Of a stretch of 64,000 nucleotides of DNA, positions 146 through 48,656 are shown piece by piece. Source of the DNA: Candidatus Omnitrophota bacterium. GTDB lineage: Bacteria > Omnitrophota > Gorgyraeia > Zapsychrales > Zapsychraceae. Each line of letters opens with the position of its first letter. The stretch's first letter is position 1. Location of the stretch: NCBI GenBank assembly GCA_015233115.1, contig JADFYJ010000014.1, positions 11,028 through 75,027 on the forward strand, read 5' to 3'. Both the position numbers and the translations under genes were made by a program. A model generated the notes under the pieces. It was not told the DNA's origin and made no database searches. It saw only the letters and a list, made by a program, of their open reading frames with translations.

Positions 146-805
146 ATGTCAAATAAACATTTTTCTAAACGAATAAGTCCTTTCATCGGCACCAAACGTA
201 TTATTGTGCTGGCCGTTGCAATTATCAGCGGGTTTTGGGCGAAGAATAATATTATTGTGCATCATTCGGGCGGGCAAGTATCTAATAACCAATCGTACTA
301 CGATGTGAAACGGGTGGTCGACGGCGATACGATCTGGCTGGAAAATGGGGAAAAAATTCGGCTGGTCGGGATGGATGCTCCGGAAAGCCGGGAAAATGAT
401 AAGGCGCTTCGCGATAGTCACAGGACTGGGGCAGATTTGGATTCAATTGTCAAAATGGGGAAAAAGGCGACAGCTTTTGTGCGTGAACTGGTTGACCGCG
501 CTGGCAATAAAGTGAAGTTAGAATATGAAGTGGAACCAAAAGATAAGTATGGCAGGAGTTTAGCGTATTTATTCATAAAAATTCCGGGCGCGACTCCGGC
601 AACTGATCCGAATTTGTATTTTATGCCAAACTCGGATGAAATTTTTCTAAATGCCTCTATTGTTAAAAGCGGTTATGCCTCACCCATGACCATCCCACCG
701 AATGTGAAGTACAGCCATCTCATCGTAGACTTATTTAGAGACGCGCGTAAAAATAATCGCGGGTTGTGGGGGGAGCAGGACAATCTTTTATTTGGAAAAA
801 GATAG
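146..805 (+). CDS. Staphylococcal-nuclease (SNase/thermonuclease) family nuclease, N-terminal membrane anchor
   Basis: N-terminal hydrophobic segment; SNase catalytic-core-like motif VKRVVDGDTIWL...IRLVGMDAPES (cf. V.DGDT...RL.GIDAPE). Confidence 0.65.
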   Translation: MSNKHFSKRISPFIGTKRIIVLAVAIISGFWAKNNIIVHHSGGQVSNNQSYYDVKRVVDGDTIWLENGEKIRLVGMDAPESRENDKALRDSHRTGADLDSIVKMGKKATAFVRELVDRAGNKVKLEYEVEPKDKYGRSLAYLFIKIPGATPATDPNLYFMPNSDEIFLNASIVKSGYASPMTIPPNVKYSHLIVDLFRDARKNNRGLWGEQDNLLFGKR

Positions 806-822
806 GTGATAAAGGAGACTGA

Positions 823-1935
823 ATGGTAATGACTTTTAATAAGAAACGAATGACTTTTAAGGATTTGGTTTCCTCAATTAAGTATGCACATCAGCAATTT
901 TTTGTGCAGGCGACGATGGCTGTTAATGTTTCTCTGACTTTGAGAAATTGGGTTATTGGCTGTTATATAGAAAAATACGAAAGAGTTGGGGTTGATAGAG
1001 CTCGCTATGGTGAACGGCTTATGGATGTTTTGGCAGATGATCTTACTAAACAAGGGCTCACTAGGTGTGATCGTAGGGAACTATATCGGTATCGGCAATT
1101 TTTTATTGCTTATCCTCAAATTGTGGAGTCACTGACTCCACAATTTTTGGTCGGAAAAAAATTACTCATAAAGGGGACTAAAAAGAAAGTGGAGTCGGTG
1201 AGTCCACAATTGATTAATTCAGGAAAGTTTTTAATAGAACGGCTTTCTTTTACACACTTGGCTGAATTGATCGAGATCAGTGATCCTCTCAAGAGAATAT
1301 TTTATGAACATGAATGTATTCGGGGTAATTGGTCTGTACGTGAGCTTAAACGTCAGATATCGACATTGTATTATGAGCGTTCTGGCCTTTCCAAAAATAA
1401 GAAAAAACTTGCCATATTCACTGCTAAAAAGGCGGAGATAGATAAGCCGGAGTTTGTGATCCGCGATCCGTATGTTTTTGAATTTCTTGGTATCAAGCCT
1501 AGGGAAGTTATGAGTGAGTCGCATTTGGAAGATGCTCTTTTAGATCGGTTGCAAGATTTTCTTCTTGAGCTCGGACATGGGTTTTGTTTTGAATCTCGAC
1601 AGAAGAGGATAATCATTGGCGGAGAACATTGTTTTGTCGACCTCGTTTTTTATCATCGAATATTAAAATGCCATGTATTGATTGAGTTAAAAACAGACGC
1701 ATTCAAACATGAACATGTGAGTCAGTTGAATACCTATGTCAGCTGGTATCAAAAATATTCAATGACACCGGGAGATAATCCTCCTGTTGGCATTTTGTTA
1801 TGCACAGGGAAGAATCATGCTATGGTCGAGTTTGCTCTGGCTGGTATGGATAATAAACTTTTTGTAAGAAAATATCAGTTGGAACTGCCTAAAAAAGAAG
1901 AAATTCAGAAGTTTCTGGAATCGCAAATTGAATAG
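823..1935 (+). CDS. DUF1016/YhcG-like PD-(D/E)xK nuclease-fold protein
   Basis: C-terminal FVDLVFYHRILKCHVLIELK...SQLNTYVSWY resembles the DLLFYH...ELK signature of the YhcG/DUF1016 family. Confidence 0.5.
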   Translation: MVMTFNKKRMTFKDLVSSIKYAHQQFFVQATMAVNVSLTLRNWVIGCYIEKYERVGVDRARYGERLMDVLADDLTKQGLTRCDRRELYRYRQFFIAYPQIVESLTPQFLVGKKLLIKGTKKKVESVSPQLINSGKFLIERLSFTHLAELIEISDPLKRIFYEHECIRGNWSVRELKRQISTLYYERSGLSKNKKKLAIFTAKKAEIDKPEFVIRDPYVFEFLGIKPREVMSESHLEDALLDRLQDFLLELGHGFCFESRQKRIIIGGEHCFVDLVFYHRILKCHVLIELKTDAFKHEHVSQLNTYVSWYQKYSMTPGDNPPVGILLCTGKNHAMVEFALAGMDNKLFVRKYQLELPKKEEIQKFLESQIE

Positions 1936-1958
1936 AAAAAGTTAAAAAGTTTCCAGAT

Positions 1959-4900
1959 ATGTCAAAACCTAACCTTAATTTCCAATTCCCCGAAGTCCGC
2001 GTGGTCGAAGCTTCCGCCGGCTCAGGAAAAACCTATGCTTTGGCTAAGCGCTATGTCCAATTGCTATTGCTGCCTAAGAATAGTTCTATTCGGGAAATCC
2101 TTGCCTTAACTTTTACTAATAAAGCGGCGTTTGAGATGAAGCGTCGTATTTTATATTTTTTGCGATCTATGGCGTTGGGTGTGATGCCAGCGGAGGAGTT
2201 GAATCTTATGATCGCTCCGGTGGGTATATCGCCGGAAGCGGCCCGTCTGCGCTGTGCGGACATTATGGATGACATTATTCGTAATTATGATTTTTTTCAG
2301 GTTGAGACGATTGATACGTTTATTAACAGCATGCTGTCCGGATGCGCGTTTAAATTGGGGGTCAGCGCGAATTTTAAAATTAAAACTCAGGCGCGGGATT
2401 ATTTGGAATTAAGCCTGGATCAATTGATTGACAGCGCGTTTGTGCATTCGCCGACCATGGATTTGCTCAAAGATTTTCTGCACAGTTATTTGTATATTGA
2501 AAACCGCAGCGGCTGGTTTCCTAAAAAGGATATGCTCGCGATCATTAATGATTTGTTCAAGGAGATCAATTCCCGTCAGGGACAGTTTGTGACTTCTCCG
2601 TTAAAAAGTGAAGCTTTGGGGGAATTGCGCGGAATTATTCTGGATGAAATGAAATTGCTTAAGCAGGCTTTGCCGTCTGGAATCGATAAACGTTTTGTGG
2701 TGAAACTGGATAAATTTCTGACTGATCACAAAAAAGGTTTTGATATCGACAGTGTCCCGGACTGGTTCACGCATGAAGATATTCCAGTTAAAAAAGGATC
2801 GGATGTCAGCGATGACGCGGATATGCTTTGGAATTTGATCCGTCAAAATTTACTACAAATGTGCGTGGATGAGGCGACCTCATTGTTCAATCCGTATGTG
2901 CATATTTTTAACGCGGCCTGGTCGAGAATCAATGATCTGGCCCGGCAGGAAGATTTATTATTTTTAAGCGAATTAAACCGCAGAGCCTCACAAATGATTA
3001 AGGACGGAAATATCACCATAGAAGAATTGGCGTTTCGTTTGACCAGCCGTTACCGTCATTATTTGTTGGATGAATTCCAGGATACCAGCCGCTTGCAATG
3101 GTCGAATGTGCATGGCTTAGTGCATGACACTTTGGCGCAAGGCGGGTCTTTGTTTTATGTGGGGGATAAAAAGCAGGCCATTTACCGTTTCCGCGGCGGG
3201 GATGTGACGTTATTTGATGATGTAAAGGAAGATTTTAAGCCGTTTAATGTGCAGGAAGAGCAGTTAAGCCGGAACTGGCGCAGCCGGCAGAATATTATTG
3301 AATTTAATAACCGTATTTTTTCCATGGCGAATTTAAACGCGTTCATTGACCGTAAACAAAAATTTGAAAAAGAACAGCCTAATAAAAAAAATCCAGTTAT
3401 TCTTTCAGACAAAGACCGGCATTTTTTAGAAAAAGTTTTCGGCGGGTCAGCGCAGGACATAAAAGCGGACCGGACCGGCGGTTATGTCCGTTTTGAGCAT
3501 ATTGAAGGCAAAGGCAAACTGGAACGGGAAGATGTTTTAAAAGAACAATTTTTTAAAGTTATTGAAGACGTGCGGCAGAGGTTCGAGCTGGAAGATATTG
3601 CGGTGCTGACACGGACTAACGGGCAAGCAAAGTTGATCACGGATTGGCTTCTGGAAGCGGAAATACCGGTTCAGTCTGACGTAACTCTGGATGTCACTCA
3701 GAATATTGTGATCCGCGATTTAGTTGCTTTTTTGAAATTTTTAAATTCTCCAGTCGATAATTTATCATTTTGCGCGTTTATTTTAAGCGGCGTATTTTTA
3801 AAAGCCTCAGGTTTGTCGTTTGATACTGTTCAGGAGTTTTTATCGTCCTTACGCGACAAGCTGGGCCGTAAAAGTGAAGTCGTTATTTATACGGAATTCC
3901 GTAAAGCGTTTCCTGAGGCGTGGGCAGGATTAATCGACGAATTTTTTAAAAATGTGGGATTGTATCCGGTTTATGAATTAGTCGTCACGATATACCGGAA
4001 ATATGATTTGTTGAATCGTTTTCCTGAAGTACAAGGATTTTTGATGCATTTTCTGGAACTGATTAAAAAACAGGAAGAAGAATACTGTGACTTGGGGATG
4101 TTCCTGGAATATTTTGAGGAAGTAGCTGGCGAGGACGTGTATGTCCATATCAGCAGTGGTAACGCGGTTAAAGTGTTGACTGTCCACAAATCCAAGGGGC
4201 TGGAATTTCCGGTTGTGATATTGCCGTTTTTAAGCATGGATGTGCAGGTGGGAGCGGGCAGCGCGGATAATAAGTTGTCGTATGTAGTGCAGGAGGCGGG
4301 CGATGCTTTGCAATTATTGCGTTTAAAAAGCAAATATTACGGCTATTCCGACGATCTTTACAATATTTACGCTCAGGAATATAAAAAAGAATTTTTGTCT
4401 GAACTCAACAGTATTTATGTGGCCTTGACCCGTGCTTCGGAAGAAATGTACGGGTTTATTCCTGCTAAAGTGGGCAACTCCCATAATTTGGCCAAGTTTC
4501 TTTTTGCTGATGATGGGCTGGAATTGGGAACAGTGACGGGACAAAAAATTATTACCAAGAAAAAAGCTGAAGAAGTTGTTATGCTGGAATCCCTGCCGGC
4601 ACAGGACTGGATCGCTTATCTGACGGATGAATTTGTGGCGATTGAAGAGATAAAGAACCGGAAAGAACGGGGGCGGGGTAAATTGATTCATGCGGTTTTG
4701 GCGCGGATTTCGGATTTGGGGCAGCAAAATTTTGATGAATTGGTTTCAGTTAAGGAAATAGATGCTGAGGAGCAGGATTGGAATGAGGCAGTCAATGTTG
4801 TGCGGGGATTGATAGAAGCTGGTAATTTTTCCAAATTTGTAAAGTTGGCTCCCGGCGAAACAGTCTTGAACGAACAGGAGATCGTTGATCATTATGGCCA

Positions 4901-5099
4901 TTCAAAACGGATTGACCGGATGGTGGTTAGAAAAGATTTTGTGGATGTCATTGACTATAAGTCTGGTGAAGAATACGCCGAGGAACAGCAGGAACAAGTG
5001 CGGCATTATATGACTTTGATTAAGACAATGTATCCGCAGAAAAAGGTGCGGGGATATTTGGTATATGTAGAAAAAAAGGAAATTGTTGATGTGCTGTAG
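1959..5099 (+). CDS. AddA/RecB-like superfamily-1 (UvrD-type) helicase with C-terminal PD-(D/E)xK nuclease domain
   Basis: Walker A EASAGSGKTYAL; motif II LLDEFQDTS; motif III VGDKKQAIYRFRGG; C-terminal nuclease motif IDRMVV...VDVIDYKSG. Confidence 0.7.
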   Translation: MSKPNLNFQFPEVRVVEASAGSGKTYALAKRYVQLLLLPKNSSIREILALTFTNKAAFEMKRRILYFLRSMALGVMPAEELNLMIAPVGISPEAARLRCADIMDDIIRNYDFFQVETIDTFINSMLSGCAFKLGVSANFKIKTQARDYLELSLDQLIDSAFVHSPTMDLLKDFLHSYLYIENRSGWFPKKDMLAIINDLFKEINSRQGQFVTSPLKSEALGELRGIILDEMKLLKQALPSGIDKRFVVKLDKFLTDHKKGFDIDSVPDWFTHEDIPVKKGSDVSDDADMLWNLIRQNLLQMCVDEATSLFNPYVHIFNAAWSRINDLARQEDLLFLSELNRRASQMIKDGNITIEELAFRLTSRYRHYLLDEFQDTSRLQWSNVHGLVHDTLAQGGSLFYVGDKKQAIYRFRGGDVTLFDDVKEDFKPFNVQEEQLSRNWRSRQNIIEFNNRIFSMANLNAFIDRKQKFEKEQPNKKNPVILSDKDRHFLEKVFGGSAQDIKADRTGGYVRFEHIEGKGKLEREDVLKEQFFKVIEDVRQRFELEDIAVLTRTNGQAKLITDWLLEAEIPVQSDVTLDVTQNIVIRDLVAFLKFLNSPVDNLSFCAFILSGVFLKASGLSFDTVQEFLSSLRDKLGRKSEVVIYTEFRKAFPEAWAGLIDEFFKNVGLYPVYELVVTIYRKYDLLNRFPEVQGFLMHFLELIKKQEEEYCDLGMFLEYFEEVAGEDVYVHISSGNAVKVLTVHKSKGLEFPVVILPFLSMDVQVGAGSADNKLSYVVQEAGDALQLLRLKSKYYGYSDDLYNIYAQEYKKEFLSELNSIYVALTRASEEMYGFIPAKVGNSHNLAKFLFADDGLELGTVTGQKIITKKKAEEVVMLESLPAQDWIAYLTDEFVAIEEIKNRKERGRGKLIHAVLARISDLGQQNFDELVSVKEIDAEEQDWNEAVNVVRGLIEAGNFSKFVKLAPGETVLNEQEIVDHYGHSKRIDRMVVRKDFVDVIDYKSGEEYAEEQQEQVRHYMTLIKTMYPQKKVRGYLVYVEKKEIVDVL

Positions 5100-5147
5100 G
5101 GCTGTGGAATGCCGTGGCTGGTTTATTACAAAATATTTTCGTTTTTT

Positions 5148-5378
5148 TGTAGCACTGCTCGCGGGAGCTTCCAGCACTACGCGGACATTGCGTCCTTGGT
5201 CGGCTGTTCGCGGGAGCTCACGGCACTACTGCGGACATTGCGTCCTTGGTCGTAGGGGCGATCTCCTGATCGCCCGTACAATAAAGATTTAAAAATCTAT
5301 TATTCCGGGGTTTTGTTTTTGGTTTTGTATTGAAAAAACGAATATTTTGTAAGCGGGCGATCAGGAGATCGCCCCTAC
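5148..5378. repeat. Composite intergenic element: tandem about 45-nt units (GCGGGAGCTC..GGCACTAC.GCGGACATTGCGTCCTTGGTCG) plus inverted pair of REP palindromes
   Basis: Units at 5161-5203 and 5208-5252; REP copies 5252-5275 and 5355-5378 are exact reverse complements; the GGACattgcGTCC hairpin recurs. Confidence 0.75.
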
Positions 5379-5418
5379 AAAAGCGAATAAAAAAAGGTCC
5401 GTCGTTTGGGTATAAAAT

Positions 5419-8220
5419 ATGACTGAAAAAAATAGAATTATTACTATTAGCTTCTGCGACCACTTTATAGAACGGTTGGCTGATCTAATCGTCGAACGGT
5501 ATAAACACTGCGGCTCTGATCTGCGCCGGGTGGCTGTCGTATTCGGAGGCAGGCGGCCGGCTTTGTTTTTGAAGGAGGCTTTGGCGAAGAGATTTAAGGG
5601 GAATTATTTCCCGCCTGCGGTGATTAAGATTGATGATTTGATGAAGGTTATCGTTGAGCAAAATAGTGTTTATGCTCCGGTTCAGGATATGGATGGCGCG
5701 TATTTGCTGTATCAGCTGGTTCAGCAGCATGCCCCGGAATTTTTAAGTCAGCGGCCGACTTTCGCGGAATTTTTACCGTGGGCGAAAGAAATTTCCGCGT
5801 TTATTGATCAACTGGATTTAGAAAATATTGATGATAAGAATTTAATGGATGTGAGCCTAAACGCGGAAATTGGGTTTGATGTACCGGAAGATATTAACGC
5901 GTTATTAAAATATTTAGGTGTGTTGCGCCAAAAATATCATGAAGCATTAAATGAGAAAAAATTATATTCGCGCGGAATGTTGTATCAAAAGGCGGCAGCC
6001 GACGCAGGCAGCGTAAAATTATCCCAATGGGATGAAATTATTTTTGCTAATTTCTTTTATTTGAATGCTTCGGAATTGAAGGTATCCCAAACTTTATGTG
6101 ATAACAAAAAAGCGTTAATGGTTTTTCAAGGTGACAGCCGCAAATGGCCGGTCTTGGAAAAATTGTCCGGGCAATTAAACGCTTCAATTGTCGAAGGCAA
6201 AGCAGTCGATGAGCCAAAATTTGAGCTTAAAATTTATGAAGCTTTTGATGCGCATTCGCAGGTTGGGTTTGTACGGAAGATTTTGAGCCAGACCAAAAAT
6301 TTAGAACGCACAGTCGTGGTTTTGCCTCAGCCGGACCACTTTATTCCTTTATTATCCGAAGTCGCTGGTTCAATCAAAGATTTTAATATTTCCCTCGGCT
6401 ATCCTTTAAAACGCAGTAGTTTATTTTCTTTGTTTGAAAATATATGTGAATGCCAGCTGTCCATGCAGGACGGCAGGTATCACGCGAAAGATTATTTAAA
6501 AGTCCTCATGCATCCGTTTGTGAAAAATTTGTCTTTGTCCCAGGGCCCGGCCGCAAACCGGATTATGGTGCATAAAATTGAAGAAGTGTTAACCGGCCAG
6601 ATTCCGACGGATATTTCCGGAAAATTATTTCTTACTCCTAAAGAAATTTTAGGCACGGAACAAATTTTTGACAGCGCCAGCCGCATGAACGCGAATCAAG
6701 GCGAGGTGAGCCTGGTTCAAGGATTGAAAAATGATTTGAGGCTGATTCATGAGCTGTTTATCGATGGTTGGAGTGATATAAAAACTTTTTATGATTTCGC
6801 GCTGAAAATCAGAACCGTGCTGGACGCGTTAACGGAAAAAAGTTTTCTTAAAAATTATCCGTTAAATATTAATATTGTTAACCGGTTGTATGAACTGACT
6901 GAGCAGTTTTTAAAGGCTGATTTTAACCGCGAAGAATTTTTGATCGAAGAAATTTTTAAAATATTTTATTCCAGCGTGGAACACGAAATCGTGGCATTTT
7001 TAGGGTCACCTTTAAAAGGCCTGCAGATTTTGGGTTTGTTTGAAACCCGTTCGCTGAATTTCGACCAAGTGATTGTCATGGATGCCAATGAAGGCACTTT
7101 ACCCCGTCTGGATTTGCGTTCCAATCTTATTCCCCGGGAAGTGATGTTAGGGTTGAAATTTGACCGGCTCAATATGGAAGAAGAGATACAGCGTTATCAG
7201 TTTATGCGTTTAATATCGTCCGCGAAACAGGTGCATGTGATTTATCAGCACAATAACGGCCATGAGCGCAGCCGTTTTGTGGAAGAGCTGATCTGGGAAG
7301 ATCAGAAAAAACATAAAAAGCTTGAAGCTTTGCCTGTGGTTAAAGGCGCGTTTACGGTTTGTGCGACGCGGGAAATTAAGCGCGTGAAAAAGACCAAGGA
7401 CGTTATCGCTTATTTAAAGGATTTCAAGTTTTCTTCATCCAGCATTAACACGTATTTGAGAAACCCCCTGGATTTTTATTATCAGTATGTTTTGGGCTTG
7501 CGTGAAAAAGAAGACCTGTTGGATGAAGTGGAAGCCAAAGAAATTGGAATTTATTTTCATTCTCTGCTGGAAGAAACCTTTAAGCCTTTTATCGGAAAAA
7601 CTCCGGTGATTGACCGCGCGTTTATGGAAACGTTTCAAAGGATCGCTGAGGAAAAATTCGAGGACCATTTCGGTAAAGCTGGCAGGTCAGCAAATTTTCT
7701 TTTAAAAACAGTCGTGGATGAGCGGATCAAACGGTTTTTAGAGAATGAGCGGTTGTCAGAGGACCGGCAGATTAAACAAATATTATTTTTAGAACAGCGT
7801 TTTACGCATGAAGTTCAACTTCCAGGGGGGAAAGTTCATCTGAATTATGTTTTTGACCGTATTGACGAAATGGCGGACGGCTCAATTATGATTTTGGATT
7901 ATAAATCCGGCGGGACAGATAAAATGCCTAAATCGATTGAGAATATGCGGGATTTGAGTTTTTCTCGTAAAGCCTTGAAAGATAACGTGCGTTCATTCCA
8001 GCTGCCATTGTATTTTTATTATCTGACCCAAAAATATCCGGGGCGCAAATTGAATGCGGCACTATACAGTTTACGCACCATGAAAAATTTTTACTTTATT
8101 ACAGACAAAATGGCGGATTTTTCTTATGATGACATTAATAAATTTTACCTGCAAGCATTAGATTTTGTGATCACCGAGATTCGTAACCCTCATGTGGAGT
8201 TTGAAGAAGATGTGGAATAA
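5419..8220 (+). CDS. AddB-like partner protein with C-terminal PD-(D/E)xK nuclease motif, no intact Walker A
   Basis: 933 aa, directly downstream of helicase-nuclease; C-terminal FDRIDEMADGSIMILDYKSGG (RecB-family nuclease motif); N-terminus lacks GxGKT. Confidence 0.5.
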   Translation: MTEKNRIITISFCDHFIERLADLIVERYKHCGSDLRRVAVVFGGRRPALFLKEALAKRFKGNYFPPAVIKIDDLMKVIVEQNSVYAPVQDMDGAYLLYQLVQQHAPEFLSQRPTFAEFLPWAKEISAFIDQLDLENIDDKNLMDVSLNAEIGFDVPEDINALLKYLGVLRQKYHEALNEKKLYSRGMLYQKAAADAGSVKLSQWDEIIFANFFYLNASELKVSQTLCDNKKALMVFQGDSRKWPVLEKLSGQLNASIVEGKAVDEPKFELKIYEAFDAHSQVGFVRKILSQTKNLERTVVVLPQPDHFIPLLSEVAGSIKDFNISLGYPLKRSSLFSLFENICECQLSMQDGRYHAKDYLKVLMHPFVKNLSLSQGPAANRIMVHKIEEVLTGQIPTDISGKLFLTPKEILGTEQIFDSASRMNANQGEVSLVQGLKNDLRLIHELFIDGWSDIKTFYDFALKIRTVLDALTEKSFLKNYPLNINIVNRLYELTEQFLKADFNREEFLIEEIFKIFYSSVEHEIVAFLGSPLKGLQILGLFETRSLNFDQVIVMDANEGTLPRLDLRSNLIPREVMLGLKFDRLNMEEEIQRYQFMRLISSAKQVHVIYQHNNGHERSRFVEELIWEDQKKHKKLEALPVVKGAFTVCATREIKRVKKTKDVIAYLKDFKFSSSSINTYLRNPLDFYYQYVLGLREKEDLLDEVEAKEIGIYFHSLLEETFKPFIGKTPVIDRAFMETFQRIAEEKFEDHFGKAGRSANFLLKTVVDERIKRFLENERLSEDRQIKQILFLEQRFTHEVQLPGGKVHLNYVFDRIDEMADGSIMILDYKSGGTDKMPKSIENMRDLSFSRKALKDNVRSFQLPLYFYYLTQKYPGRKLNAALYSLRTMKNFYFITDKMADFSYDDINKFYLQALDFVITEIRNPHVEFEEDVE

Positions 8221-10219
8221 TCCTAAATTGCGGTTCGTCTGTCAGATATTATTATTAGTTATTGTCGGTGTTTTAATCTATTCCAACAGTTTGCATTCAG
8301 ATTTTGTTTTTGACGATAAAATTTTTGTGGCGGGCAATCCTAATCTTCACAAGTTAACTGATTTTAAAGCGCTATGGCATTCTCAGCCAGGGTCATCACG
8401 CATTGTCGCTGTCATCAGTTTCGCGTTAAACTATCATTTCACAAAATTGAATGTGGTTGGATTTCATGCGACGAATTTGGTGTTCCATTTGATCAATGGT
8501 TTTCTCGTCTGGTGGCTCATTTGTCTGCTGTTTGAAACACCGGTATTAAAACGCCACCGGTTTTATGAATCTCGAAATGTTATCGCCTGGATCTGCGCGT
8601 TATTATTTGTTGTACATCCGTTACAAACTCAGGCCGTCGCTTATATTACACAAAGATTCGCGTCATTGGCTACTTTATTTTATGTGTTAGGTATGTGCTG
8701 GTATTTAGTGGGCCGCTTGAGCGGTCGAAAACGGTTTTATGTATTGGCGTGTGGCAGTACTGCTTTGAGCATGCTGACTAAAGAAATGGCCATGACTTTT
8801 CCTTTAATGGTCATCATGACGGAATGGGTGCTTTTTGAACATCAGCGGGTAGAATGGCGTAAAATGCTTTTTGGGGGCGCTGCATTATTAGGATTAGGGA
8901 TGATTGTTCCTGCGGTGATGAGGTTTAATATTTTTGCGGCTTTGTTTGACCCCAAGCCAGGGAATTCACATCTTTGGGATACGGTGATGTTTGAACCCTT
9001 TGTGATGACGCAGCTAAAAGTATGGGTAGTATTATTGGCAAAATTATTTGTTCCGATACACCAGAATTTGGATTATGATTTTCCATTAGTTAATAATTTT
9101 TGGCAAATGGATATTTGGGGCAGCGCCGTTATATTGATAGCGCTGCTCGTTTTCGCGGTGAAATACCGGCAGAAAAGCCCTTTAGTCAGTTATGGAATTT
9201 TTTGGTTTTTTGTGGCGATGAGTGTTGAGATGATCCCGCGTATGTATGTGATTTTCGAACATAAAATGTATCTGCCCATGGCAGGCTTAAGTATGGCCCT
9301 TGTCGGATTAAGCTGGGAATGGATTAAAAATAATAAAGCGCGTGGGATAGTTCTGGCTGGGGTTATTATTTTGTTTGGCGTTTTAAGCTATCATCGGAAT
9401 TTTGTCTGGAAAGATGAAGTGTCCTTATGGGGTGATGTGGTCAAACATTCTCCTAACAAGCCAACAGCGAATTACAATTTAGGGTGCGCGTATCAGGAAA
9501 AGGGCATGTTGGATAAGGCCTTATATTATTTTAATAGAACCGCAGCTCTTTCACGGTATGAATACAGCGCGCTGGTTAACCGGTCTATGGTGAGAGAACA
9601 ATTGGGCGATTCAGACGGCGCATTGGATGATTTGAACCGGGTACTCTTGATGAAAAATGATCAATTTGAGGCCTACAATAACCGGGGCACACTTTACGGG
9701 AAGCGTCAGGAATATGGCAAGGCGGTCATGGATTTGAGCAAGGCGTTATACCTTCGTCCTGAGTCCGCGGAAACGTATTATAACCGGGGGTCAGCTTTTC
9801 AAGTTTTGAATAAACTTCCTGAAGCGTTAAATGATTTTACGAAATCCATTCAGTTGAAACCGGATTATTCCCGGGCGTATATAAGCCGGGGGATTGTTAA
9901 TATGATGTTAGGCCGCGATGCTGAAGCTGGCCAAGATTTTACCACAGCCATAGAATTAGAGCCTTATTTTCCGAATTCGTACATGAACCGGGGGATTTTA
10001 GAAATGAAGCTGGGATATGCCAAACAGGCAGGCATGGATTTGAGCCGGGCGGTGGCCCTTAATCCCAATCTGGGAATGGCTCGGTATGATTTATTTCTTA
10101 TTTTTAAGTCTGTCGGTTTAAATGACAAAGCTGCTGAGCAGGCCAAGTATATTATCGAGCATAATCTTGACGTTGATGCGCGGTCAAAAGCAGAGATACA
10201 AAAATTTTTTATGAAGTAA
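8192..10219 (+). CDS. TMTC/PMT-like polytopic membrane protein (DUF1736-type) with C-terminal TPR repeats, paralog 1
   Basis: N-terminal multi-TM region with FHATNLVFHLINGFLVWWL motif typical of TMTC-like GT-C proteins; C-terminal repeated A..Y.NRG.. TPR-like units. Confidence 0.55.
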   Translation: MWSLKKMWNNPKLRFVCQILLLVIVGVLIYSNSLHSDFVFDDKIFVAGNPNLHKLTDFKALWHSQPGSSRIVAVISFALNYHFTKLNVVGFHATNLVFHLINGFLVWWLICLLFETPVLKRHRFYESRNVIAWICALLFVVHPLQTQAVAYITQRFASLATLFYVLGMCWYLVGRLSGRKRFYVLACGSTALSMLTKEMAMTFPLMVIMTEWVLFEHQRVEWRKMLFGGAALLGLGMIVPAVMRFNIFAALFDPKPGNSHLWDTVMFEPFVMTQLKVWVVLLAKLFVPIHQNLDYDFPLVNNFWQMDIWGSAVILIALLVFAVKYRQKSPLVSYGIFWFFVAMSVEMIPRMYVIFEHKMYLPMAGLSMALVGLSWEWIKNNKARGIVLAGVIILFGVLSYHRNFVWKDEVSLWGDVVKHSPNKPTANYNLGCAYQEKGMLDKALYYFNRTAALSRYEYSALVNRSMVREQLGDSDGALDDLNRVLLMKNDQFEAYNNRGTLYGKRQEYGKAVMDLSKALYLRPESAETYYNRGSAFQVLNKLPEALNDFTKSIQLKPDYSRAYISRGIVNMMLGRDAEAGQDFTTAIELEPYFPNSYMNRGILEMKLGYAKQAGMDLSRAVALNPNLGMARYDLFLIFKSVGLNDKAAEQAKYIIEHNLDVDARSKAEIQKFFMK

Positions 10220-10220
10220 C

Positions 10221-10262
10221 ACCGCGCCGGAGGACCTACGATCCACCGACGCGGTGTTCCAT
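10221..10262. terminator. GC-rich hairpin downstream of TMTC-like paralog 1
   Basis: caccgcgccgg...ccaccgacgcggtgttcc imperfect inverted repeat sharing a core with 14069-14100 and 58616-58675. Confidence 0.45.
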
Positions 10263-10281
10263 GGGTTTATAGGGATTGATC

Positions 10282-12282
10282 ATGAAAAATAAATTACTTA
10301 AAATTATATTACTGGCCGGAGCCGTGATCCTTTTTTATGGGAACACTTTTACTTCGATATTTCATTTTGATGATCGTTTGTTTGTCGTTGAGAACAAAAA
10401 TATCCGAAACCTTATGGATATTAATGCCATATGGCATTCAGCGCCGCAGAATTCCCGGTTTGTCGCCAATTTTACCTTCGCGGTTAATTATGCTTTGGGT
10501 CAATTGAATGTGGTGGGTTATCACATCGTTAATATCCTGATCCACATGATCAACGGATTTTTAGTGTGGTGGTTGATTACGCTGCTGTTTAATACACCGG
10601 GGCTCAATAAACACAAATTGTTCAAATATAAAGATGGCATTGGATGGGTTGCGGGGATGTTGTTTATCGCCCACCCCTTGCAGACACAGGCTGTCACCTA
10701 TATTTGCCAAAGATACGCTTCCTTGGCTACGTTGTTTTACCTGTTAACAATGTGCTGGTATTTAAAAGCGCGGCTGAGCGGGCAGAAGAAATTTTTTGTG
10801 CTTTGTGTGGTCAGCGCACTCTTGGGGATGTTTACCAAGGAAATGACTATGACTTTGCCGCTTATGGTGATAATGACAGAATGGATGATGTTTGAGCATA
10901 AAAAGTGGGAATGGAAAAATACGGTTCTTTACGGATTGGTTTTATTTGGATTTTTCATGATTATTCCAGCCTTGATGAAGTTTAACTTTTTCTGGGCGAT
11001 TTTTGAGCCTAAACCATCATCGTCGCATAATTGGGATATGATTTTGCTGGAACCTTTTGTCATGACCCAGTTAAAAGTATGGGCGATTTTGTTGGGCAAG
11101 GTTTTTGTGCCCATTCACCAAAATGTGGATTATGATTTTCCGCTGGTCCATAATTTTTGGCAGATTGAGGTGTGGGGCAGTGCGGTGATATTGTCCGCTC
11201 TTTTAATATTCGCCGTTTTATATCGTCGTAAAAATCCTTTGGTCAGTTATGGAATTATGTGGTTTTTTGTGGCCATGAGCATAGAGATGGTGCCGCGGAT
11301 CTATGTCATTTTTGAACATAAAATGTATTTGCCATTTGCGGGTTTATGTATGGCTTTTACGGGATTGTGGCAGGATAAGGTGGAAGATGAAAAAATCCGT
11401 ATGATCATCATGACCGCGGTGATTGTCATTTTGGGTATGTTGACATTTCAACGTAACGCGGTTTGGAAAGATGATATTTCTTTGTGGTCTGATTCGGTTA
11501 AAAATTCCCCTCGTAAACCGACTCCCAATTATAATTTAGGCTGTGCTTATCAGCAAAAAGGCATGGCGAATGAGGCTCTTTATTATTTTAATCAGACGTT
11601 TCAATCGTATCGATATCATTATAAAAATTTAGTGAACCGGGCTTTGATTTTAGAAGACCGGGGAGATTTTAATGGAGCGCTGAATGATCTTAATCGGGCG
11701 ATTTTTTTACGGAGCGATTTGGCGGAAGCCTATAATAACCGCGGCGGGTTGATGGGGAAAATGAATAATTACGATCAGGCGTTGGCCAACCTTGATCGGG
11801 CGTTGAATCTTATGCCTAATTTTCCGGAAGCATATTATAACCGGGCTATGGTTTTTCAAAAGACCAATCGTTTGCCTGAGGCGGTCGTTGAACTCACCAA
11901 AGCAATAAATATAAACCCCAAATATGTCGGGGCTTATTTAAATCGGGGGAGTGTTTATTTGATGTTGCAAAAAACCGATGAGGCCTATCGGGATTTAAGC
12001 CGTGCTATTGAGCTATATCCTCAATACGCAGAAGCTTATTTAAACCGGGGAGCCGTTGAAGTTCAGATGGGTATGGCGGAACAAGCAGTACGCGATTTTA
12101 CCAAGGCACTTGAATATAAACCAGATTGGGGTATGGCGTACTATGACCGGTTTTTTATTTACCGTTCTATGAATCAGCTTGATAAAGCCCGGCAAGACGC
12201 GCGGTATATCATCGACGCGAATTTAGAATTGTCAGACAGCTCCAAACAAGAAATAAAAAAATTTTTAAATTATGCAAAATAA
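10282..12282 (+). CDS. TMTC/PMT-like membrane protein with C-terminal TPR repeats, paralog 2
   Basis: Colinear similarity to 8192-10219 (YHIVNILIHMINGFLVWWL; MTEWMMFEHKKWEWKNTVL); ATG at 10282 preceded by AGGGA; ORF track start 10276 is TTG. Confidence 0.55.
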   Translation: MKNKLLKIILLAGAVILFYGNTFTSIFHFDDRLFVVENKNIRNLMDINAIWHSAPQNSRFVANFTFAVNYALGQLNVVGYHIVNILIHMINGFLVWWLITLLFNTPGLNKHKLFKYKDGIGWVAGMLFIAHPLQTQAVTYICQRYASLATLFYLLTMCWYLKARLSGQKKFFVLCVVSALLGMFTKEMTMTLPLMVIMTEWMMFEHKKWEWKNTVLYGLVLFGFFMIIPALMKFNFFWAIFEPKPSSSHNWDMILLEPFVMTQLKVWAILLGKVFVPIHQNVDYDFPLVHNFWQIEVWGSAVILSALLIFAVLYRRKNPLVSYGIMWFFVAMSIEMVPRIYVIFEHKMYLPFAGLCMAFTGLWQDKVEDEKIRMIIMTAVIVILGMLTFQRNAVWKDDISLWSDSVKNSPRKPTPNYNLGCAYQQKGMANEALYYFNQTFQSYRYHYKNLVNRALILEDRGDFNGALNDLNRAIFLRSDLAEAYNNRGGLMGKMNNYDQALANLDRALNLMPNFPEAYYNRAMVFQKTNRLPEAVVELTKAININPKYVGAYLNRGSVYLMLQKTDEAYRDLSRAIELYPQYAEAYLNRGAVEVQMGMAEQAVRDFTKALEYKPDWGMAYYDRFFIYRSMNQLDKARQDARYIIDANLELSDSSKQEIKKFLNYAK

Positions 12283-14080
12283 ATGGTTAAAAATTTTATT
12301 ATTGGCTGGTGTTGTTCTTCTTTGTTATTCCAATACTTTTCATGCTCCTTTCCAATATGACGATTATATTTTTGTCTCTGGTAATCCGAATATCCGCGAT
12401 TTAACAGATATTAAAGCGTTATGGCATTCTCAACCGCAATATTCCCGTTTTGTCGCCACTGTTAGCTTTGCTTTGAATTATCATTTTGGCAAGTTGAATG
12501 TGTTTGGTTATCATGTTGTCAATTTATTGATCCATCTGATGAATGGGCTGTTAGTGTGGTGGCTGATCAAACTATTGATGGCCACTCCCGGACTTAATAA
12601 TCATAAACTATCAAAATATAAAGACAATATAGGATGGGTGAGCGCACTTTTGTTCATTGCTCATCCCTTACAGACAGAGGCCGTGACTTATATTTGTCAA
12701 AGATATGCGTCCCTGGCAACCTTGTTTTATCTGCTGGCCATGGGTTGGTATTTAAAAGCACGGCTGAGCGGGCAGAAAAAATTTTTTGTTATGTGCGCGG
12801 TGAGTGCGCTGTTGGGTATGTTCACCAAAGAATTCACCATGACTTTGCCGGTCATGATCATAATGACGGAATGGATGATGTTTGAACATAAAAAATGGGA
12901 TTGGAAAAATACGGTTTTGTTCGGATTGGTGCTGTTAGGATTTTTAATGATTGTTCCTGCTTTGATGAGGTTTAATTTTTTCTGGGCCATTTTTGAGCCT
13001 AAGCCGTCATCGTCTCATATTTGGGATGTGATTACCTTGGTTCCTTATGTGATGACGCAATTGAAAGTGTGGGTGGTGCTGTTAGGAAAAGTCTTGATAC
13101 CGATCCATCAGAATTTGGATTATGATTTTCCGCTGGTCCATAATTTTGGCCAGATTGATGTCTGGGGCAGCGCGGTGATTTTATTGGGTCTTTTGATATT
13201 CGCCATTATATATTATCGGAAAAATCTTTTGGTCAGTTATGGGATTATGTGGTTTTTTGTGGCCATGAGCATTGAAATGGTGCCGCGGATTTATGTCATT
13301 TTTGAACACAAGATGTATTTGCCGTTGGCGGGTTTATGCATGGCGTTTACGAGTTTGTGGCAGGATAAGGTGGAAGATGACAAAGTGCGTATCATTATCA
13401 TGACTACGCTGATTGTGGCTTTTGGCTTTCTTACGTTTCAGCGCAACGCGGTTTGGAAAAGCACGTTATCTTTATGGGCGGATACTGTCAGCCATTCACC
13501 GGATAAACCTTCGGCTAATCATATGTTGGCTTATTCTTATATTGAGAGCGGTGATCTGGACACGGGCATGTTGTATCTGGAAAAAACCTTAAGTATTGAT
13601 CGGTTTTATTTTAAAGCGATTTATAACCGCGCGTTTGTGTATTTAGAACGGGGACAATTGGATAAAGCTTTAAAAGAATTGAATGAATGTCTTCGCTTGA
13701 GTCCGACATATTCCCGGGCCTATGTTAAGCGGGGATTGGCATATACGCAAATGGGAAATATTCCTAAAGCGTTGGAAGACTATGCCAAAGGGATGGAATT
13801 GGAACCTAGATTTTCCGGCGCGTATCTTAATCGGGGTGTGGCTTATTACAAAATCGGCGAATTTGATTTAGCGATTAAGGATTTTTCAAAAGCTATTGCT
13901 TTGGACCCGGATTTGGCCGGCGCGTATTTTAACCGGTTTTCTGCGTACAAATCTAAAGGGGAGACGCAGAAAGCGTTGAATGAGGTTTTATACATTACTA
14001 AAAATAATATGAAGCTAAACCCGGAACAAATTGCGGAAATGGAAAAATATTTAAAGGAAAACCTCCGCGTCGGTGGTTAG
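12272..14080 (+). CDS. TMTC/PMT-like membrane protein with C-terminal TPR repeats, paralog 3
   Basis: Near-identical blocks to paralog 2 (MTEWMMFEHKKWDWKNTVLFGLVL); start overlaps paralog 2 stop. Confidence 0.55.
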   Translation: MQNKWLKILLLAGVVLLCYSNTFHAPFQYDDYIFVSGNPNIRDLTDIKALWHSQPQYSRFVATVSFALNYHFGKLNVFGYHVVNLLIHLMNGLLVWWLIKLLMATPGLNNHKLSKYKDNIGWVSALLFIAHPLQTEAVTYICQRYASLATLFYLLAMGWYLKARLSGQKKFFVMCAVSALLGMFTKEFTMTLPVMIIMTEWMMFEHKKWDWKNTVLFGLVLLGFLMIVPALMRFNFFWAIFEPKPSSSHIWDVITLVPYVMTQLKVWVVLLGKVLIPIHQNLDYDFPLVHNFGQIDVWGSAVILLGLLIFAIIYYRKNLLVSYGIMWFFVAMSIEMVPRIYVIFEHKMYLPLAGLCMAFTSLWQDKVEDDKVRIIIMTTLIVAFGFLTFQRNAVWKSTLSLWADTVSHSPDKPSANHMLAYSYIESGDLDTGMLYLEKTLSIDRFYFKAIYNRAFVYLERGQLDKALKELNECLRLSPTYSRAYVKRGLAYTQMGNIPKALEDYAKGMELEPRFSGAYLNRGVAYYKIGEFDLAIKDFSKAIALDPDLAGAYFNRFSAYKSKGETQKALNEVLYITKNNMKLNPEQIAEMEKYLKENLRVGG

Positions 14081-25998: not shown

Positions 25999-27633
25999 CT
26001 ATTTCCTACTCTTATCCGTCACCCAGAATTCCATATATTTGCCGAACATCAAGCGGGTCTGCGCGTCGAGGGCGGGGAGGGCGCTTAAGCCTACTAGGAC
26101 AAAAGGAATGGTTAGCCATTCCAGGATATGGCCTAGTTTTTTCTTCCAGGGTTTTTCCCCTTCCGGGTCCGGGAGCATCGCGATCGACAGGGCAGTCGAT
26201 ATAAATAAGGAAATGGTAGATAATTGAAATATGGTCTGCGCGATGTGCGGTTCGTTGTAATAAATGACTGAATGCGCAAAACGGTGCCCGGCAATGAGGG
26301 CAGGAAGCCAACTCATCGTTGTTAACAGAAATCCCCACGTGGCCCAGGACACATGATCTTCCAGCATTTTAAATCCATGACGGATTTTATTATAAAGAGA
26401 AATGTTGGGGCTTTGCATAAAACCTCGAATAAGAATGGGAAAATTTTCTGCTCCGTAAGCCCAGCGTCGTCTTTGTTTATAAATATTTTTCATGGTTTTA
26501 ACCCAGTCTTCCGCGACGGTCGCGTCCATGGACAGCGTGGCATAGATCGGCATGACCTGATATTTTCCTTCATAAAATAAATAAGCTTTCCAGAAAATAG
26601 CTGAGTCGTCGGATATCATATCTCTCGGCCAATATCCGATTTCAACTAAAGCTTTAAAACTCATACTATGACTTGAAAATGTGACCAGTTTTTCCGGGTT
26701 AGTGGATTCGATGAGCTGGAAAAACGAAGATCCGGTTTCCATAACGCGGGAAAAGGGCGGGACATTCCAAATATTATTGTGGTATACGGGAATAGGCTGA
26801 TAACTAGTATGGTCGCGATCCGGGCTGGTCATGAAAGAATAGGTCAGGGCGGAGAAATATTTTTTGTCGACGACCGTGTCCGCATCAAAACAAGAAACCA
26901 CGACCTGGCTAAAGTCGATTTTTTTCTTCTCTAAATATTGGGAACAATGTTCAGCCGCGTATGAAGCATTGGCGCCTTTAACCCGGGCTTCGCCCGGCAA
27001 TCCAGCCGGATGAAAAATAACCAGGAAATCCATGAAATGGGTTTTATATTCTTCTTGCAGTCTGAGCGCCGCTTCTTTTGTCGCTGAGGGGGCTCGTTCT
27101 TCAACGGCGAATACGATCAACATTTGATGAGTGGAAAATTCTTGCTCAGCTAAAGACACAATCCCTGGACGAATAATTTCTTCACCTTCTTTGGCGGCTG
27201 GGATGATGACCACATGGTAGATGTCAGATGATAAAGGCGGTAGGGATTTGCACTGCATTAATTTTTTTAAATTGTTTTTATGGATTCCGACAGAAATAAA
27301 ATCATTGAACGACGCGGATTCGAAAGCATTTTTAAAAGTCAGATGTTGATGCAGATCGTCAATTTCTTTAATGCGTTTAAGCCATTCGGTTTTACGTTCA
27401 ATATTAAAGCGCAAATAGGAGATCGTCAGTAGGATTGTTAAATAGATCAGCCGGATAAACCAAAAAAATATTAATGCGATCGCGATAATAGAAGCGCGTA
27501 AAGGATCGAAAATCGAGAGAAACAGGATTCCCAGGAGAATTGACCAACTGCATATTCCGGGTAGAATTTCCAAAAATCGTTGAAGCCGTTTTTCTTTTTC
27601 GCTTAAATTTGATTTAGAATAATTAAAAGACAT
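25999..27633 (-). CDS. Family-2 processive glycosyltransferase (cellulose/chitin/hyaluronan-synthase-like)
   Basis: QRRRWAYG (QxxRW) processivity motif; DADT (DxD); N- and C-terminal TM clusters. Confidence 0.65.
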   Translation of the reverse strand: MSFNYSKSNLSEKEKRLQRFLEILPGICSWSILLGILFLSIFDPLRASIIAIALIFFWFIRLIYLTILLTISYLRFNIERKTEWLKRIKEIDDLHQHLTFKNAFESASFNDFISVGIHKNNLKKLMQCKSLPPLSSDIYHVVIIPAAKEGEEIIRPGIVSLAEQEFSTHQMLIVFAVEERAPSATKEAALRLQEEYKTHFMDFLVIFHPAGLPGEARVKGANASYAAEHCSQYLEKKKIDFSQVVVSCFDADTVVDKKYFSALTYSFMTSPDRDHTSYQPIPVYHNNIWNVPPFSRVMETGSSFFQLIESTNPEKLVTFSSHSMSFKALVEIGYWPRDMISDDSAIFWKAYLFYEGKYQVMPIYATLSMDATVAEDWVKTMKNIYKQRRRWAYGAENFPILIRGFMQSPNISLYNKIRHGFKMLEDHVSWATWGFLLTTMSWLPALIAGHRFAHSVIYYNEPHIAQTIFQLSTISLFISTALSIAMLPDPEGEKPWKKKLGHILEWLTIPFVLVGLSALPALDAQTRLMFGKYMEFWVTDKSRK

Positions 27634-27698
27634 GTTGGTTGATGGTTTTTGGTTGTTGGTTTTTGGTTGTCATCCCCGAGTGCTTCAATCGGGGATCC
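27634..27698 (-). promoter_or_regulatory. Conserved leader element (hairpin + CA-rich CAACCA array) immediately upstream of GT2 gene start
   Basis: Transcribed-strand sequence GGATCCCCGATTGAAGCACTCGGGGATGACAACCAAAAACCAACAACCAAAAACCATCAACCAAC then ATG; about 90% identical copy at 29241-29290. Confidence 0.6.
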
Positions 27699-27772
27699 AG
27701 TAATAAAATTTTTCGTTTTTTTAACAGCCAATCGTTTTTTGTTTGACCGATCACCTTTCACCTATCACTTTT

Positions 27773-39259: not shown

Positions 39260-39465
39260 CCGAGTAACCGAGTAACAGAGTAACAAAGAGATAGCACAAA
39301 AGGCTAAACGCGATTGCTGAGAAAAGTTTTGTATTTTAAAAGCATCTATTTATTAAACATTTTTTATCAATTTTTGAGTATTAGTTTTTGTTTTTTATGC
39401 TTTTCGTTGTTTTACTCGGTTACTTTGTTACTCGGTTACTTTGTTACTCGGTTACTTTGTTACTA
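39256..39465. repeat. Intergenic island between the two pilB genes: (GTAACNRA) 8-mer array, AT-rich spacer, inverted (KGTTACTY)x7 array
   Basis: Left gtaaccgagtaaccgagtaacagagtaacaaagag 39256-39290; right gttgttttactcggttactttgttactcggttactttgttactcggttactttgttact 39405-39465. Confidence 0.8.
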
Positions 39466-39481
39466 TTAAGAATATAATCCT

Positions 39482-41200: not shown

Positions 41201-41203
41201 AAA

Positions 41204-41520: not shown

Positions 41521-41536
41521 AAAGTGAGGTTAAATT

Positions 41537-42739: not shown

Positions 42740-42845
42740 TCAATAGGTTATAGGTTATAGGAAAAATTTTTGTCATTCCCGCGCAAGCGGGAATCCAGAT
42801 TTTCGTTTTTCCTGTCGCCTATCGTATTATCAAAGGAGAATAGGC

Positions 42846-43781: not shown

Positions 43782-43799
43782 GAGTGTCAACCAGGAAGC

Positions 43800-44366: not shown

Positions 44367-44393
44367 AGACTGGATTTTAAAGGAGCTCATTTT

Positions 44394-44810: not shown

Positions 44811-44817
44811 AAACCCA

Positions 44818-48655: not shown

Positions 48656-48656
48656 G

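Follow-up and report, generated by a model that had tools for sequence, protein, structure and literature searches.

The animal proteins TMTC1-4 (CAZy family GT105) are protein O-mannosyltransferases of the endoplasmic reticulum (ER) that act on cadherins and protocadherins. Their genes are disease genes, linked to cobblestone lissencephaly and hearing loss, and their enzymology is still largely inferred. Each protein has 11 transmembrane (TM) helices, a cytoplasmic N-terminus and a non-cytoplasmic C-terminal tail of tetratricopeptide repeats (TPRs) (PMC7801869). TMEM260 is a GT-C protein O-mannosyltransferase with Rossmann-like and TPR domains in the lumen, and its TPR domain is both required and sufficient to recruit the acceptor peptide (10.64898/2026.03.17.711096). 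Full-length prokaryotic homologues of the TMTCs were already noted by Eisenhaber et al. 2021, who gave one BLAST example, AMJ42_05695 of Deltaproteobacteria bacterium DG_8, without analysis (PMC7801869). Here we describe three tandem genes, P1, P2 and P3 (8192-14080, plus strand), in a 64,000-nucleotide stretch of a Candidatus Omnitrophota genome (GCA_015233115.1, contig JADFYJ010000014.1; hereafter the window). On balance, we favour reading them as TMTC-branch GT-C transferases that share a catalytic domain and use their TPR tails for acceptors, most likely protein.

Homology of P1-P3 to the animal TMTCs

P1-P3 have a common layout, an N-terminal domain (N-domain) of about 400 amino acids (aa) with 11 TM helices followed by a TPR solenoid of 5-7 repeats, and NCBI labels all three 'tetratricopeptide repeat protein'. 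An earlier reading made from the DNA alone, here called the sequence-only reading, had described three successive, colinear genes for TMTC-type GT-C enzymes with TPR tails, sharing the motif (H)xxNxx(I/L)Hxx(N)G(F/L)LVWWL and an MTEWxxFEH loop. The three open reading frames (ORFs) are indeed found on the plus strand where it placed them, with 72% mean column identity; both motifs, the first as YHxxNxxIHxxNGxLVWWL, occur in P1, P2 and P3, and the tails match Pfam TPR models at E 1e-26 to 1e-34. When the full proteins and the N-domains alone were scanned against Pfam and NCBIfam, up to E 10, TPR models were the only ones returned and the N-domain had no match. The Pfam model behind the DUF1736 label of the sequence-only reading gave no significant match: P1-P3 have no match to PF08409 (TMTC_DUF1736) up to E 10; with 25 diverse family members, the best result was a single match at E 0.056. 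Pfam misses the bacterial family because its sole TMTC model covers the divergent TM7-TM8 loop. P1-P3 also have no match to the PMT_2 model of the ArnT-like enzymes (Pfam PF13231). Searching the PDB with a single sequence gave no match, and a 25-member profile gave only chance matches to FlhD (E 0.1-0.6).

We compared the bacterial family with a test set of 12 TMTC N-domains (human, zebrafish and fly TMTC1-4) and rows for ArnT, STT3A, PglB and Pmt1, rebuilt from the TMTC1-4 N-domain alignment in the supplement of Eisenhaber et al. 2021 (PMC7801869). The bacterial N-domain hidden Markov model (HMM) scored 97-134 bits on all 12 animal TMTCs, 10.5 bits on ArnT and below zero on Pmt1, STT3A and PglB. 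When the family was aligned with the TMTCs by hhalign, the match extended over 370 columns with a probability of 100% and an E-value of 6e-42, spanning residues 8-395 of P2 and 4-423 of TMTC3 at 21% identity. These scores and this alignment indicate that P1-P3 are genuine TMTC homologues in the GT-C superfamily, beyond mere GT-C lookalikes.

An AlphaFold2 model of the P2 N-domain (pLDDT 95.1, pTM 0.94) has the polytopic fold of the solved lipid-linked-sugar transferases that defines the GT-C superfamily. The top Foldseek matches in the PDB were all GT-C enzymes, namely STT3, Pmt4, ArnT, DPY19, Pmt1/2 and EmbC, with probabilities of about 0.8-1.0 and query-normalised TM-scores mostly of 0.4-0.55, and the transporters and receptors in the output were at chance probability. 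No solved TMTC structure was present among the PDB matches obtained by sequence, profile or Foldseek.

We then mapped the TMTC motifs M1-M7, as defined in Table 4 of PMC7801869, onto 107 family sequences; all counts below are over these sequences and residue numbers are those of P2. D32, D33, N86, H90, H133, P134, Q145, R146, T193, P195, E347 and Y351 were invariant (107/107), and K188, R61 and H348 were each found in 106/107. D32 and D33 form M1, the DD of the first external loop, and align with D31/D32 of TMTC3. M4 (KE(T/Q)xxT, third external loop; phosphate and metal) is kept as K188 and T193 in the same numbering as TMTC3 188-193, with Glu (71) or Gln (33) at position 189 in 104/107 sequences together. 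The HPxxTxAV motif retains H133 and P134 throughout. M5 (DW, fourth external or DUF1736 loop) appears to correspond to D285 (85/107), Y286 (102/107) and D287 (100/107), in a region where alignment confidence is lower.

Short loops carry a family mean of 6.8 Lys and Arg residues on the proposed cytoplasmic side versus 1.7 on the opposite side. Given this positive-inside bias and the 11 hydrophobic helices in the P2 N-domain model, the N-terminus is cytoplasmic and the TPR solenoid projects into the periplasm, as in the TMTCs. The DD, R61, HP/QR, K188-E189...T193, D285-Y-D287 and E347-H348-(R/K)...Y351 positions all lie in periplasmic loops or at periplasmic helix ends. The N-domain is under purifying selection, with a ratio of nonsynonymous to synonymous substitution rates (dN/dS) of 0.11-0.14.

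The likeness to animal TMTC1-4 covers the full length of the N-domain, the 11 TM helices, the inside N-terminus and the outside TPRs, as well as the DD of M1, M4, HPxxTxAV, the Arg of M3, the terminal RN, Glu and Tyr in M7 and, less certainly, the Asp-aromatic pair of M5. Unlike the TMTCs, whose active face is in the ER lumen, P1-P3 have theirs in the periplasm; they lack the SHKSY residues, the NDFWG insert and the acid of M3, M6 is reduced and the Arg of M7 is replaced by His-Arg/Lys. The bacterial genes also differ in having no DUF1736 model match, in their low identity to TMTC3 (21%) and in occurring in tandem arrays that evolve in concert. The carrier in bacteria must be polyprenyl phosphate, versus dolichyl phosphate for the TMTCs. 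AMJ42_05695 also consists of a transferase domain followed by TPRs, and Deltaproteobacteria/Desulfobacterota are represented within the P1-P3 family; both are uncharacterised. TMEM260 shares with P1-P3 an 11-TM GT-C core and provides, through its peptide-recruiting TPRs, the best experimental precedent for the role of the tail, but it belongs to a different GT-C family: P1-P3 have no Pfam DUF2723/TMEM260-type match and no Rossmann-like domain between TM11 and the TPRs.

With full-length N-domain homology, a GT-C fold and an invariant DD, the TMTC-type GT-C assignment of the sequence-only reading stands. That reading had named two outcomes that would speak against it, placement of the N-domain in a non-glycosyltransferase family and loss of the catalytic acidic residues. 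We found neither, as structure and profiles both point to GT-C and the DD is present in every sequence.

Duplication and probable gene conversion in the array

The same neighbourhood is found in a metagenome-assembled genome (MAG) of a sister species, GCA_015233195.1, which carries AddA-like and AddB-like genes, two family genes (O2 and O3) and then YggS, ProC, MTAP and IleRS. Flanking orthologues of the window and the sister MAG are 67-82% identical, with saturated synonymous divergence (dS). Within the window, N-domain identity is 59% for P1/P2, 60% for P1/P3 and 78% for P2/P3, and the corresponding TPR-tail identities are 50%, 38% and 34%. The claim that P2 and P3 are much closer to each other than to P1 therefore applies to the N-domain (78% versus 59-60%) and fails for the tail, where P2 is nearer to P1 (50%) than to P3 (34%). 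The duplication was also said to be recent, which the data contradict: dS is 1.2 between the P2 and P3 N-domains and above 2 against P1, and P2 and P3 both have orthologues in the sister species.

Comparison of the four genes revealed opposite groupings in the two domains. TPR tails pair by orthologue (P2/O2 68%, P3/O3 57%, every other pair 34-39%), while N-domains pair by genome (P2/P3 78%, O2/O3 76%, between genomes 67-70%). In four-point bootstraps, the N-domain gave the paralogue topology in 500/500 replicates for amino acids, nucleotides and third positions, and the TPR tail gave the orthologue topology in 492-500/500. Using 40-codon windows, the topology preference flipped at alignment columns 400-420, which is the TM11/TPR junction. 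Comparing dN/dS by domain, a check proposed by the sequence-only reading, was limited by synonymous sites that are saturated for most pairs, so that only dN and topology are informative. In the N-domain, dN was 0.12 for paralogues and 0.17-0.22 for orthologues; in the tail it was 0.22-0.36 for orthologues and 0.67-0.69 for paralogues. When the analysis was confined to codons whose residue is shared by all four copies, the N-domain grouped by genome in 1990/2000 bootstraps. Because the tails group by orthologue while the N-domains group by genome, gene conversion appears to be confined to the catalytic domain. The P2/P3 duplication is thus likely to have preceded the species split, with the catalytic domain homogenised since then in each lineage independently by conversion that spared the tails.

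Alternatively, the similarity of the P2 and P3 N-domains could have arisen without gene conversion, by parallel selection or composition drift or by independent replacement of the whole N-domain in each lineage, which we consider unlikely. Two points tell against conversion. The G+C content at third codon positions (GC3) differs between the genomes (about 0.44 versus 0.33), which biases the synonymous-only test and by itself draws same-genome copies together at synonymous sites, and the inference is drawn from a single genome pair. Parsimony-informative synonymous patterns also give a modest signal (22 versus 10 versus 7). When P1 was used as an internal control, same-genome copies were closer than sister-genome copies by 1-3% in amino acids and about 0.04 in the proportion of synonymous differences (pS). 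This effect is below the same-genome excess of the P2/P3 and O2/O3 pairs (8-10% in amino acids, 0.09-0.14 pS), and the control suggests that GC3 bias explains only about a third of the synonymous effect. The topology change is, moreover, sharp and located at the domain boundary, and the tracts of highest similarity are not the same ones in both genomes (columns 160-400 for P2/P3; 80-140 and 340-380 for O2/O3), as independent conversions predict. A partial re-duplication that replaces one domain would be mechanistically equal to non-allelic gene conversion.

The sequence-only reading had further taken two similar alternate-frame ORFs, one within P2 (10644-10895, plus strand) and one within P3 (12634-12885, plus strand), as confirmation of a recent duplication. 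Both ORFs exist and neither is evidence on the age of the duplication. They are frame +2 shadows of the most conserved coding stretch (aa 121-207), which is 87% identical in the host frame and 49% in the shadow frame, and when the codons of these genes were shuffled, 7-15% of trials gave an alternate frame that stayed open for at least 84 aa. Based on this shadowing and the codon-shuffle rate, we rejected them as genes and as dating evidence.

The sister MAG carries, right after O2/O3, a 551-aa gene (locus L001, 14141-15796) without a Pfam match, which is a very divergent family member (58 bits). Its LDD, YRP, HPINH and SHEMS motifs look nearer to the animal TMTC motifs. This gene has no counterpart in the window, and P1 has none in the sister MAG.

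The family extends well beyond this pair of genomes. In a search space of 1.84 billion, the N-domain profile matched 101,307 cluster representatives (50% identity) at E ≤ 1e-3 and 26,424 at E ≤ 1e-30, and at least 591 matching stretches were found in GTDB species representatives. The best 78 loci are mostly from Omnitrophota, with others from Nitrospirota, Desulfobacterota/Thermodesulfobacteriota, Planctomycetales-labelled MAGs, Latescibacterota, Hydrogenedentota and Bacteroidota, and they include one from a cultured carrier, Geomonas paludis Red736, whose gene lies at around 106.2-107.4 kb of NZ_BLXY01000005.1 (locus L080). A few JGI records of family members bear the automatic name 'protein O-mannosyl-transferase'. 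Since NCBI labels mention only a TPR protein and the catalytic domain has no Pfam model, a large class of probable periplasmic glycosyltransferases is hidden from standard annotation. Its small, intron-free bacterial members, such as one in cultured G. paludis, could be tractable models of TMTC structure and mechanism.

Two or more family genes were present in 23/80 loci of about 20 kb each. The Omnitrophota contig JAJDCA010000018.1 (GCA_029261055.1; locus L002, 1-21986, same contig as L005) encodes at least 11 consecutive TMTC-like genes of 602-869 aa on the same strand, some with tails far longer than those of the window. Ten of these genes were scored, and all have the N-domain: nine are complete (470-540 bits) and one is truncated at the locus edge. 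The three-gene array of the window is a small example of this family-wide habit of tandem amplification. As such, the locus is a further ordinary instance of a known but uncharacterised kind; its mosaic history is unusual, and the points worth following are the domain-confined gene conversion here and the large arrays elsewhere.

Putative donor and acceptor

In the mechanism that we propose, the catalytic domain would, as in other GT-C enzymes, bind its donor from the membrane, a monosaccharide linked to polyprenyl phosphate. The carrier would be undecaprenyl phosphate, and the donor would be the product of an AglJ/PpgS/ArnC-like GT2 whose gene would lie elsewhere in the genome. The aspartates of the first loop would position the hydroxyl of the acceptor or activate it, phosphate and metal would be handled by K188 and E189, and the sugar would be passed to an acceptor bound to the TPR tail, the likeliest candidates being Ser/Thr residues of periplasmic or surface proteins. 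An array of such genes would combine one catalytic chemistry in common with several stable acceptor-recognition modules.

A small GT2 is the most recurrent neighbour of the family, found within 10 kb in 16/78 loci and within about 750 bp in 8, which belong to Nitrospirota, Bacteroidota, Latescibacterota and Omnitrophota. For 8/8 adjacent GT2s tested, the best NCBIfam match was a polyprenyl-phosphate monosaccharide synthase (AglJ, PpgS or ArnC). All eight score below the equivalog cut-offs, so their sugar cannot be named.

A number of observations speak against a TMTC-like transferase acting on proteins. M2 (SHKSYRP, modelled mannose contacts) is not conserved: it retains nothing but its Arg (R61, 106/107). 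Its Ser, His, Lys, Ser and Tyr either vary or are missing, and the 11-aa NDFWG insert that comes before the motif in the TMTCs is absent. The M2 His is the residue mutated in human lissencephaly. In M3 (RxD, second external loop), R146 is invariant, but Ala (84) or Thr (15) stands in place of the acid, with Ser (100) next to it. M6 (PxxP, TM9) is represented by a single conserved Pro (P340, 96/107) with different spacing, and in M7 (ERxxY, before TM10), where E347 and Y351 are invariant, the Arg is replaced by His (106/107), followed by Arg or Lys (106/107). These altered ligand motifs may mean that donor and chemistry differ from those of the TMTCs. The genes around P1-P3 are housekeeping genes and include none for glycans or donors, and no homologue of a polyprenyl-phosphate-sugar synthase was found anywhere in the 64-kb window. 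The GT2 association concerns 10-20% of loci and GT2 genes are common, which makes it supportive rather than decisive. TPR domains bind polysaccharides in some export systems, so that a protein acceptor is putative. Finally, our literature search found no functional study or biochemical evidence for any bacterial family member, in agreement with the sequence-only reading, which had called them uncharacterised.

The catalytic and phosphate/metal positions are kept and the modelled mannose contacts are lost, a pattern we read as suggesting the same chemistry with a sugar that is not indicated. The 'mannosyl' of the sequence-only reading is doubtful and unproven because the residues modelled as TMTC mannose contacts have not been retained. 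It is probably not the TMTC mannose-binding motif, absent from P1-P3, that dictates the sugar.

The identity of the acceptor is the weakest link of our explanation, in which protein is favoured. P1-P3 could instead be active TMTC-like GT-C transferases on a non-protein acceptor (lipid A/lipopolysaccharide, peptidoglycan, lipoglycan or exopolysaccharide), with a TPR that docks on envelope machinery or binds polysaccharide; we regard this as a minority possibility. Non-protein acceptors are used by ArnT, EmbA-C and Rv3779-type enzymes, and ArnT and EmbC are among the structural neighbours of the P2 N-domain. The lost mannose contacts would also fit, as would several adjacent GT2s that are nearest to PpgS and ArnC, enzymes whose products go into the modification of glycans or lipids. 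Exporters of the BcsC, PgaA and AlgK types have polysaccharide-binding TPR domains, and P1-P3 show weak NCBIfam TPR matches to such proteins. In sequence, however, the family is far nearer to TMTC1-4 (97-134 bits), which are protein O-mannosyltransferases, than to ArnT (10.5), and many paralogues with one catalytic domain and distinct, individually conserved tails fit a repertoire of protein acceptors better than one glycan. The TPR domain of TMEM260, moreover, binds an acceptor peptide (10.64898/2026.03.17.711096).

Two further alternatives concern the N-domain itself. It could be a degenerate GT-C anchor for catalytically dead TPR scaffolds, given that several TMTC ligand motifs are changed and that no Pfam or NCBIfam enzyme model matches P1-P3. 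This is very improbable in view of the DD and about 20 further polar or structural positions that are invariant in 107 diverse members, the strong purifying selection (dN/dS 0.11-0.14) on an N-domain that is conserved more than the tail, and the recurrence of the family beside donor-synthase-like GT2s. The sequence-only reading had also named an O-antigen ligase/polymerase (Wzy_C/WaaL/PglL-type) as an alternative. O-antigen-ligase-like proteins fused to TPRs occur in bacteria, and the N-domain is polytopic and without annotation. Against this, neither Wzy_C nor any other Pfam model matches the N-domains even at E 10, no ligase is among the structural neighbours, and TMTC homology runs over the full length (E 6e-42). 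Contradicted by the Foldseek neighbours, the TMTC HMM scores and hhalign, the ligase reading is hardly credible and we rejected it.

The tails are conserved between species, with identities (P2/O2 68%, P3/O3 57%) that equal or fall just short of those of the flanking housekeeping proteins (67-82%), while the tails within one genome differ strongly. Together with the TMEM260 precedent, this conservation strengthens the inference that each TPR tail may have a distinct acceptor specificity, and the arrays offer a natural experiment on how TPR tails control it. More tentatively, tandem TMTC-like arrays could be systems of modular periplasmic protein O-glycosylation, in which conversion that halts at the TM11/TPR junction keeps the catalytic module uniform and a TPR repertoire sends the same sugar to different clients; we see this as possible and still doubtful. 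If true, they would be a widespread, unrecognised bacterial counterpart of the pathway that O-mannosylates cadherins in animals, and possibly its ancestor.

Gene coordinates, P4 and surroundings

All features of P1-P3 given here are on the plus strand. The three genes encode TMTC-like GT-C glycosyltransferases with TPR tails: P1 occupies 8192-10219 (675-aa ORF; family HMM 538 bits), P2 occupies 10276-12282 (668 aa from TTG 10276; 563 bits) and P3, whose tail is shorter, occupies 12272-14080 (602 aa; 561 bits). The NCBI gene models have 669 aa for P1, 666 aa for P2 and 602 aa for P3, the last identical to the ORF. From the first two lengths, the true starts are likely ATG 8210 for P1 and ATG 10282 for P2; a GGGA motif stands 5' of the latter. 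The AddB-like gene upstream runs into the start region of P1 (stop at 8218-8220), and the start of P3 overlaps the end of P2 by 11 nt. A hairpin at 10219-10257, inside the 56-nt gap between P1 and P2, has a 15-bp interrupted stem (-25.4 kcal/mol, z -2.17). It has no downstream U-tract and is therefore no canonical terminator; it may be a processing or attenuation signal instead. A promoter and terminator scan was uninformative, with terminator-like sites as frequent as expected from shuffles.

By alignment and motif mapping, the 11-TM catalytic N-domain of P1 extends over 8192-9412. It contains FDD (8309-8317), SRIV (8396-8407), HPLQT (8615-8629), QRFAS (8651-8665), TKEMAMT (8777-8797), DYDFP (9071-9085), FEHKMY (9254-9271) and RNFVWK (9395-9412), and is followed by a periplasmic tail of 268 aa (9413-10216) with Pfam TPR matches. 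In P2, the N-domain modelled with AlphaFold2 covers 10276-11469, with FDD (D32, D33) at 10366-10374, SRFV (R61) at 10453-10464, HPLQT at 10672-10686, QRYAS at 10708-10722, TKEMTMT (K188, E189, T193) at 10834-10854, DYDFP at 11128-11142, FEHKMY at 11311-11328 and RNAVWK at 11452-11469. Its periplasmic TPR tail (11470-12279, 270 aa) is orthologous to the O2 tail. The P3 N-domain (12272-13459), 78% identical to that of P2, is the inferred gene-conversion region and carries YDD (12356-12364), SRFV (12443-12454), HPLQT (12662-12676), QRYAS (12698-12712), TKEFTMT (12824-12844), DYDFP (13118-13132), FEHKMY (13301-13318) and RNAVWK (13442-13459). The periplasmic TPR tail of P3 (13460-14077, 206 aa), orthologous to the O3 tail, is shorter than those of P1 and P2 by a 68-aa block, which is exactly two TPR units.

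The sequence-only reading had counted a fourth TPR/polytopic protein, P4 (34952-36829), with the family. P4 is 23-27% identical to P1-P3, has no family-HMM match and gives hhalign probabilities below 1%; it matches PMT_2 (PF13231) instead, at E 1.3e-9. We rejected it as a fourth paralogue, as it is unrelated at the profile level and stands outside the amplification. P4 is a GT-C protein of the PMT_2 type that also bears a TPR tail, a separate case of the same domain architecture. ArnT/PMT_2 enzymes, including P4, share with P1-P3 the GT-C fold and, putatively for P1-P3, polyprenyl-phosphate monosaccharide donors. An acidic first periplasmic loop is likewise common to ArnT-type GT-C enzymes and P1-P3 (PMC7801869). 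The sequence relation is marginal (ArnT 10.5 bits), and P4 matches PMT_2 while P1-P3 do not. The P4 gene overlaps the end of rodA and closes the cluster mreB-mreC-(160-aa ORF)-PBP2-rodA-P4; a glycosyltransferase within an elongasome operon is unusual.

P1-P3 are flanked by genes for an AddA/AddB-like nuclease-helicase, YggS, ProC, MTAP, IleRS, LspA and RluD, which are housekeeping functions. Upstream of P1, positions 146-8220 encode an SNase-like nuclease, a YhcG/DUF1016 PD-(D/E)XK nuclease, a UvrD-type helicase of 1046 aa and a PD-(D/E)XK protein of 933 aa. The helicase and the 933-aa protein resemble an AddA/AddB pair; the gene of the latter overlaps the P1 start, and the order is kept in the sister MAG. 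The remaining window holds housekeeping genes, the MreBCD-PBP2-RodA operon, type IV pilus ATPases and a chemotaxis cluster. On the minus strand at 25999-29218, a 544-aa GT2 (Glyco_trans_2_3) and a 481-aa PEGA-domain protein may form a small exopolysaccharide module. These are two of only five minus-strand ORFs among the 47 window ORFs of at least 150 aa, the other 42 being on the plus strand, an extreme coding-strand bias. Every 2-kb bin of 1-64000 has a positive GC skew and the cumulative skew climbs without reversal, the pattern expected where a long stretch belongs to one replichore.

Other genes recur near TMTC-like genes in the family's loci. A 616-aa polytopic protein (locus L043, 8021-9868) that ends in a short TPR-like part and has no assigned family adjoins them in 4 loci and may be a further unannotated GT-C-type enzyme. 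A B12-binding radical SAM protein (locus L044, 8600-10054, and six other loci) lies within 10 kb of TMTC-like genes in 7/78 loci, and a GT4 glycosyltransferase recurs near them in 6 loci. In the window itself, positions 37481-50097 encode two tandem PilB/GspE-type ATPases (592 and 572 aa) and a PilC-like protein, followed by a chemotaxis-type cluster of CheX-like, CheW, CheW-receiver, CheR, CheB and Hpt proteins. Type IV pilins are frequent targets of O-glycosylation in other bacteria. This region resembles a pilus motor that has a Che-like control of its own.

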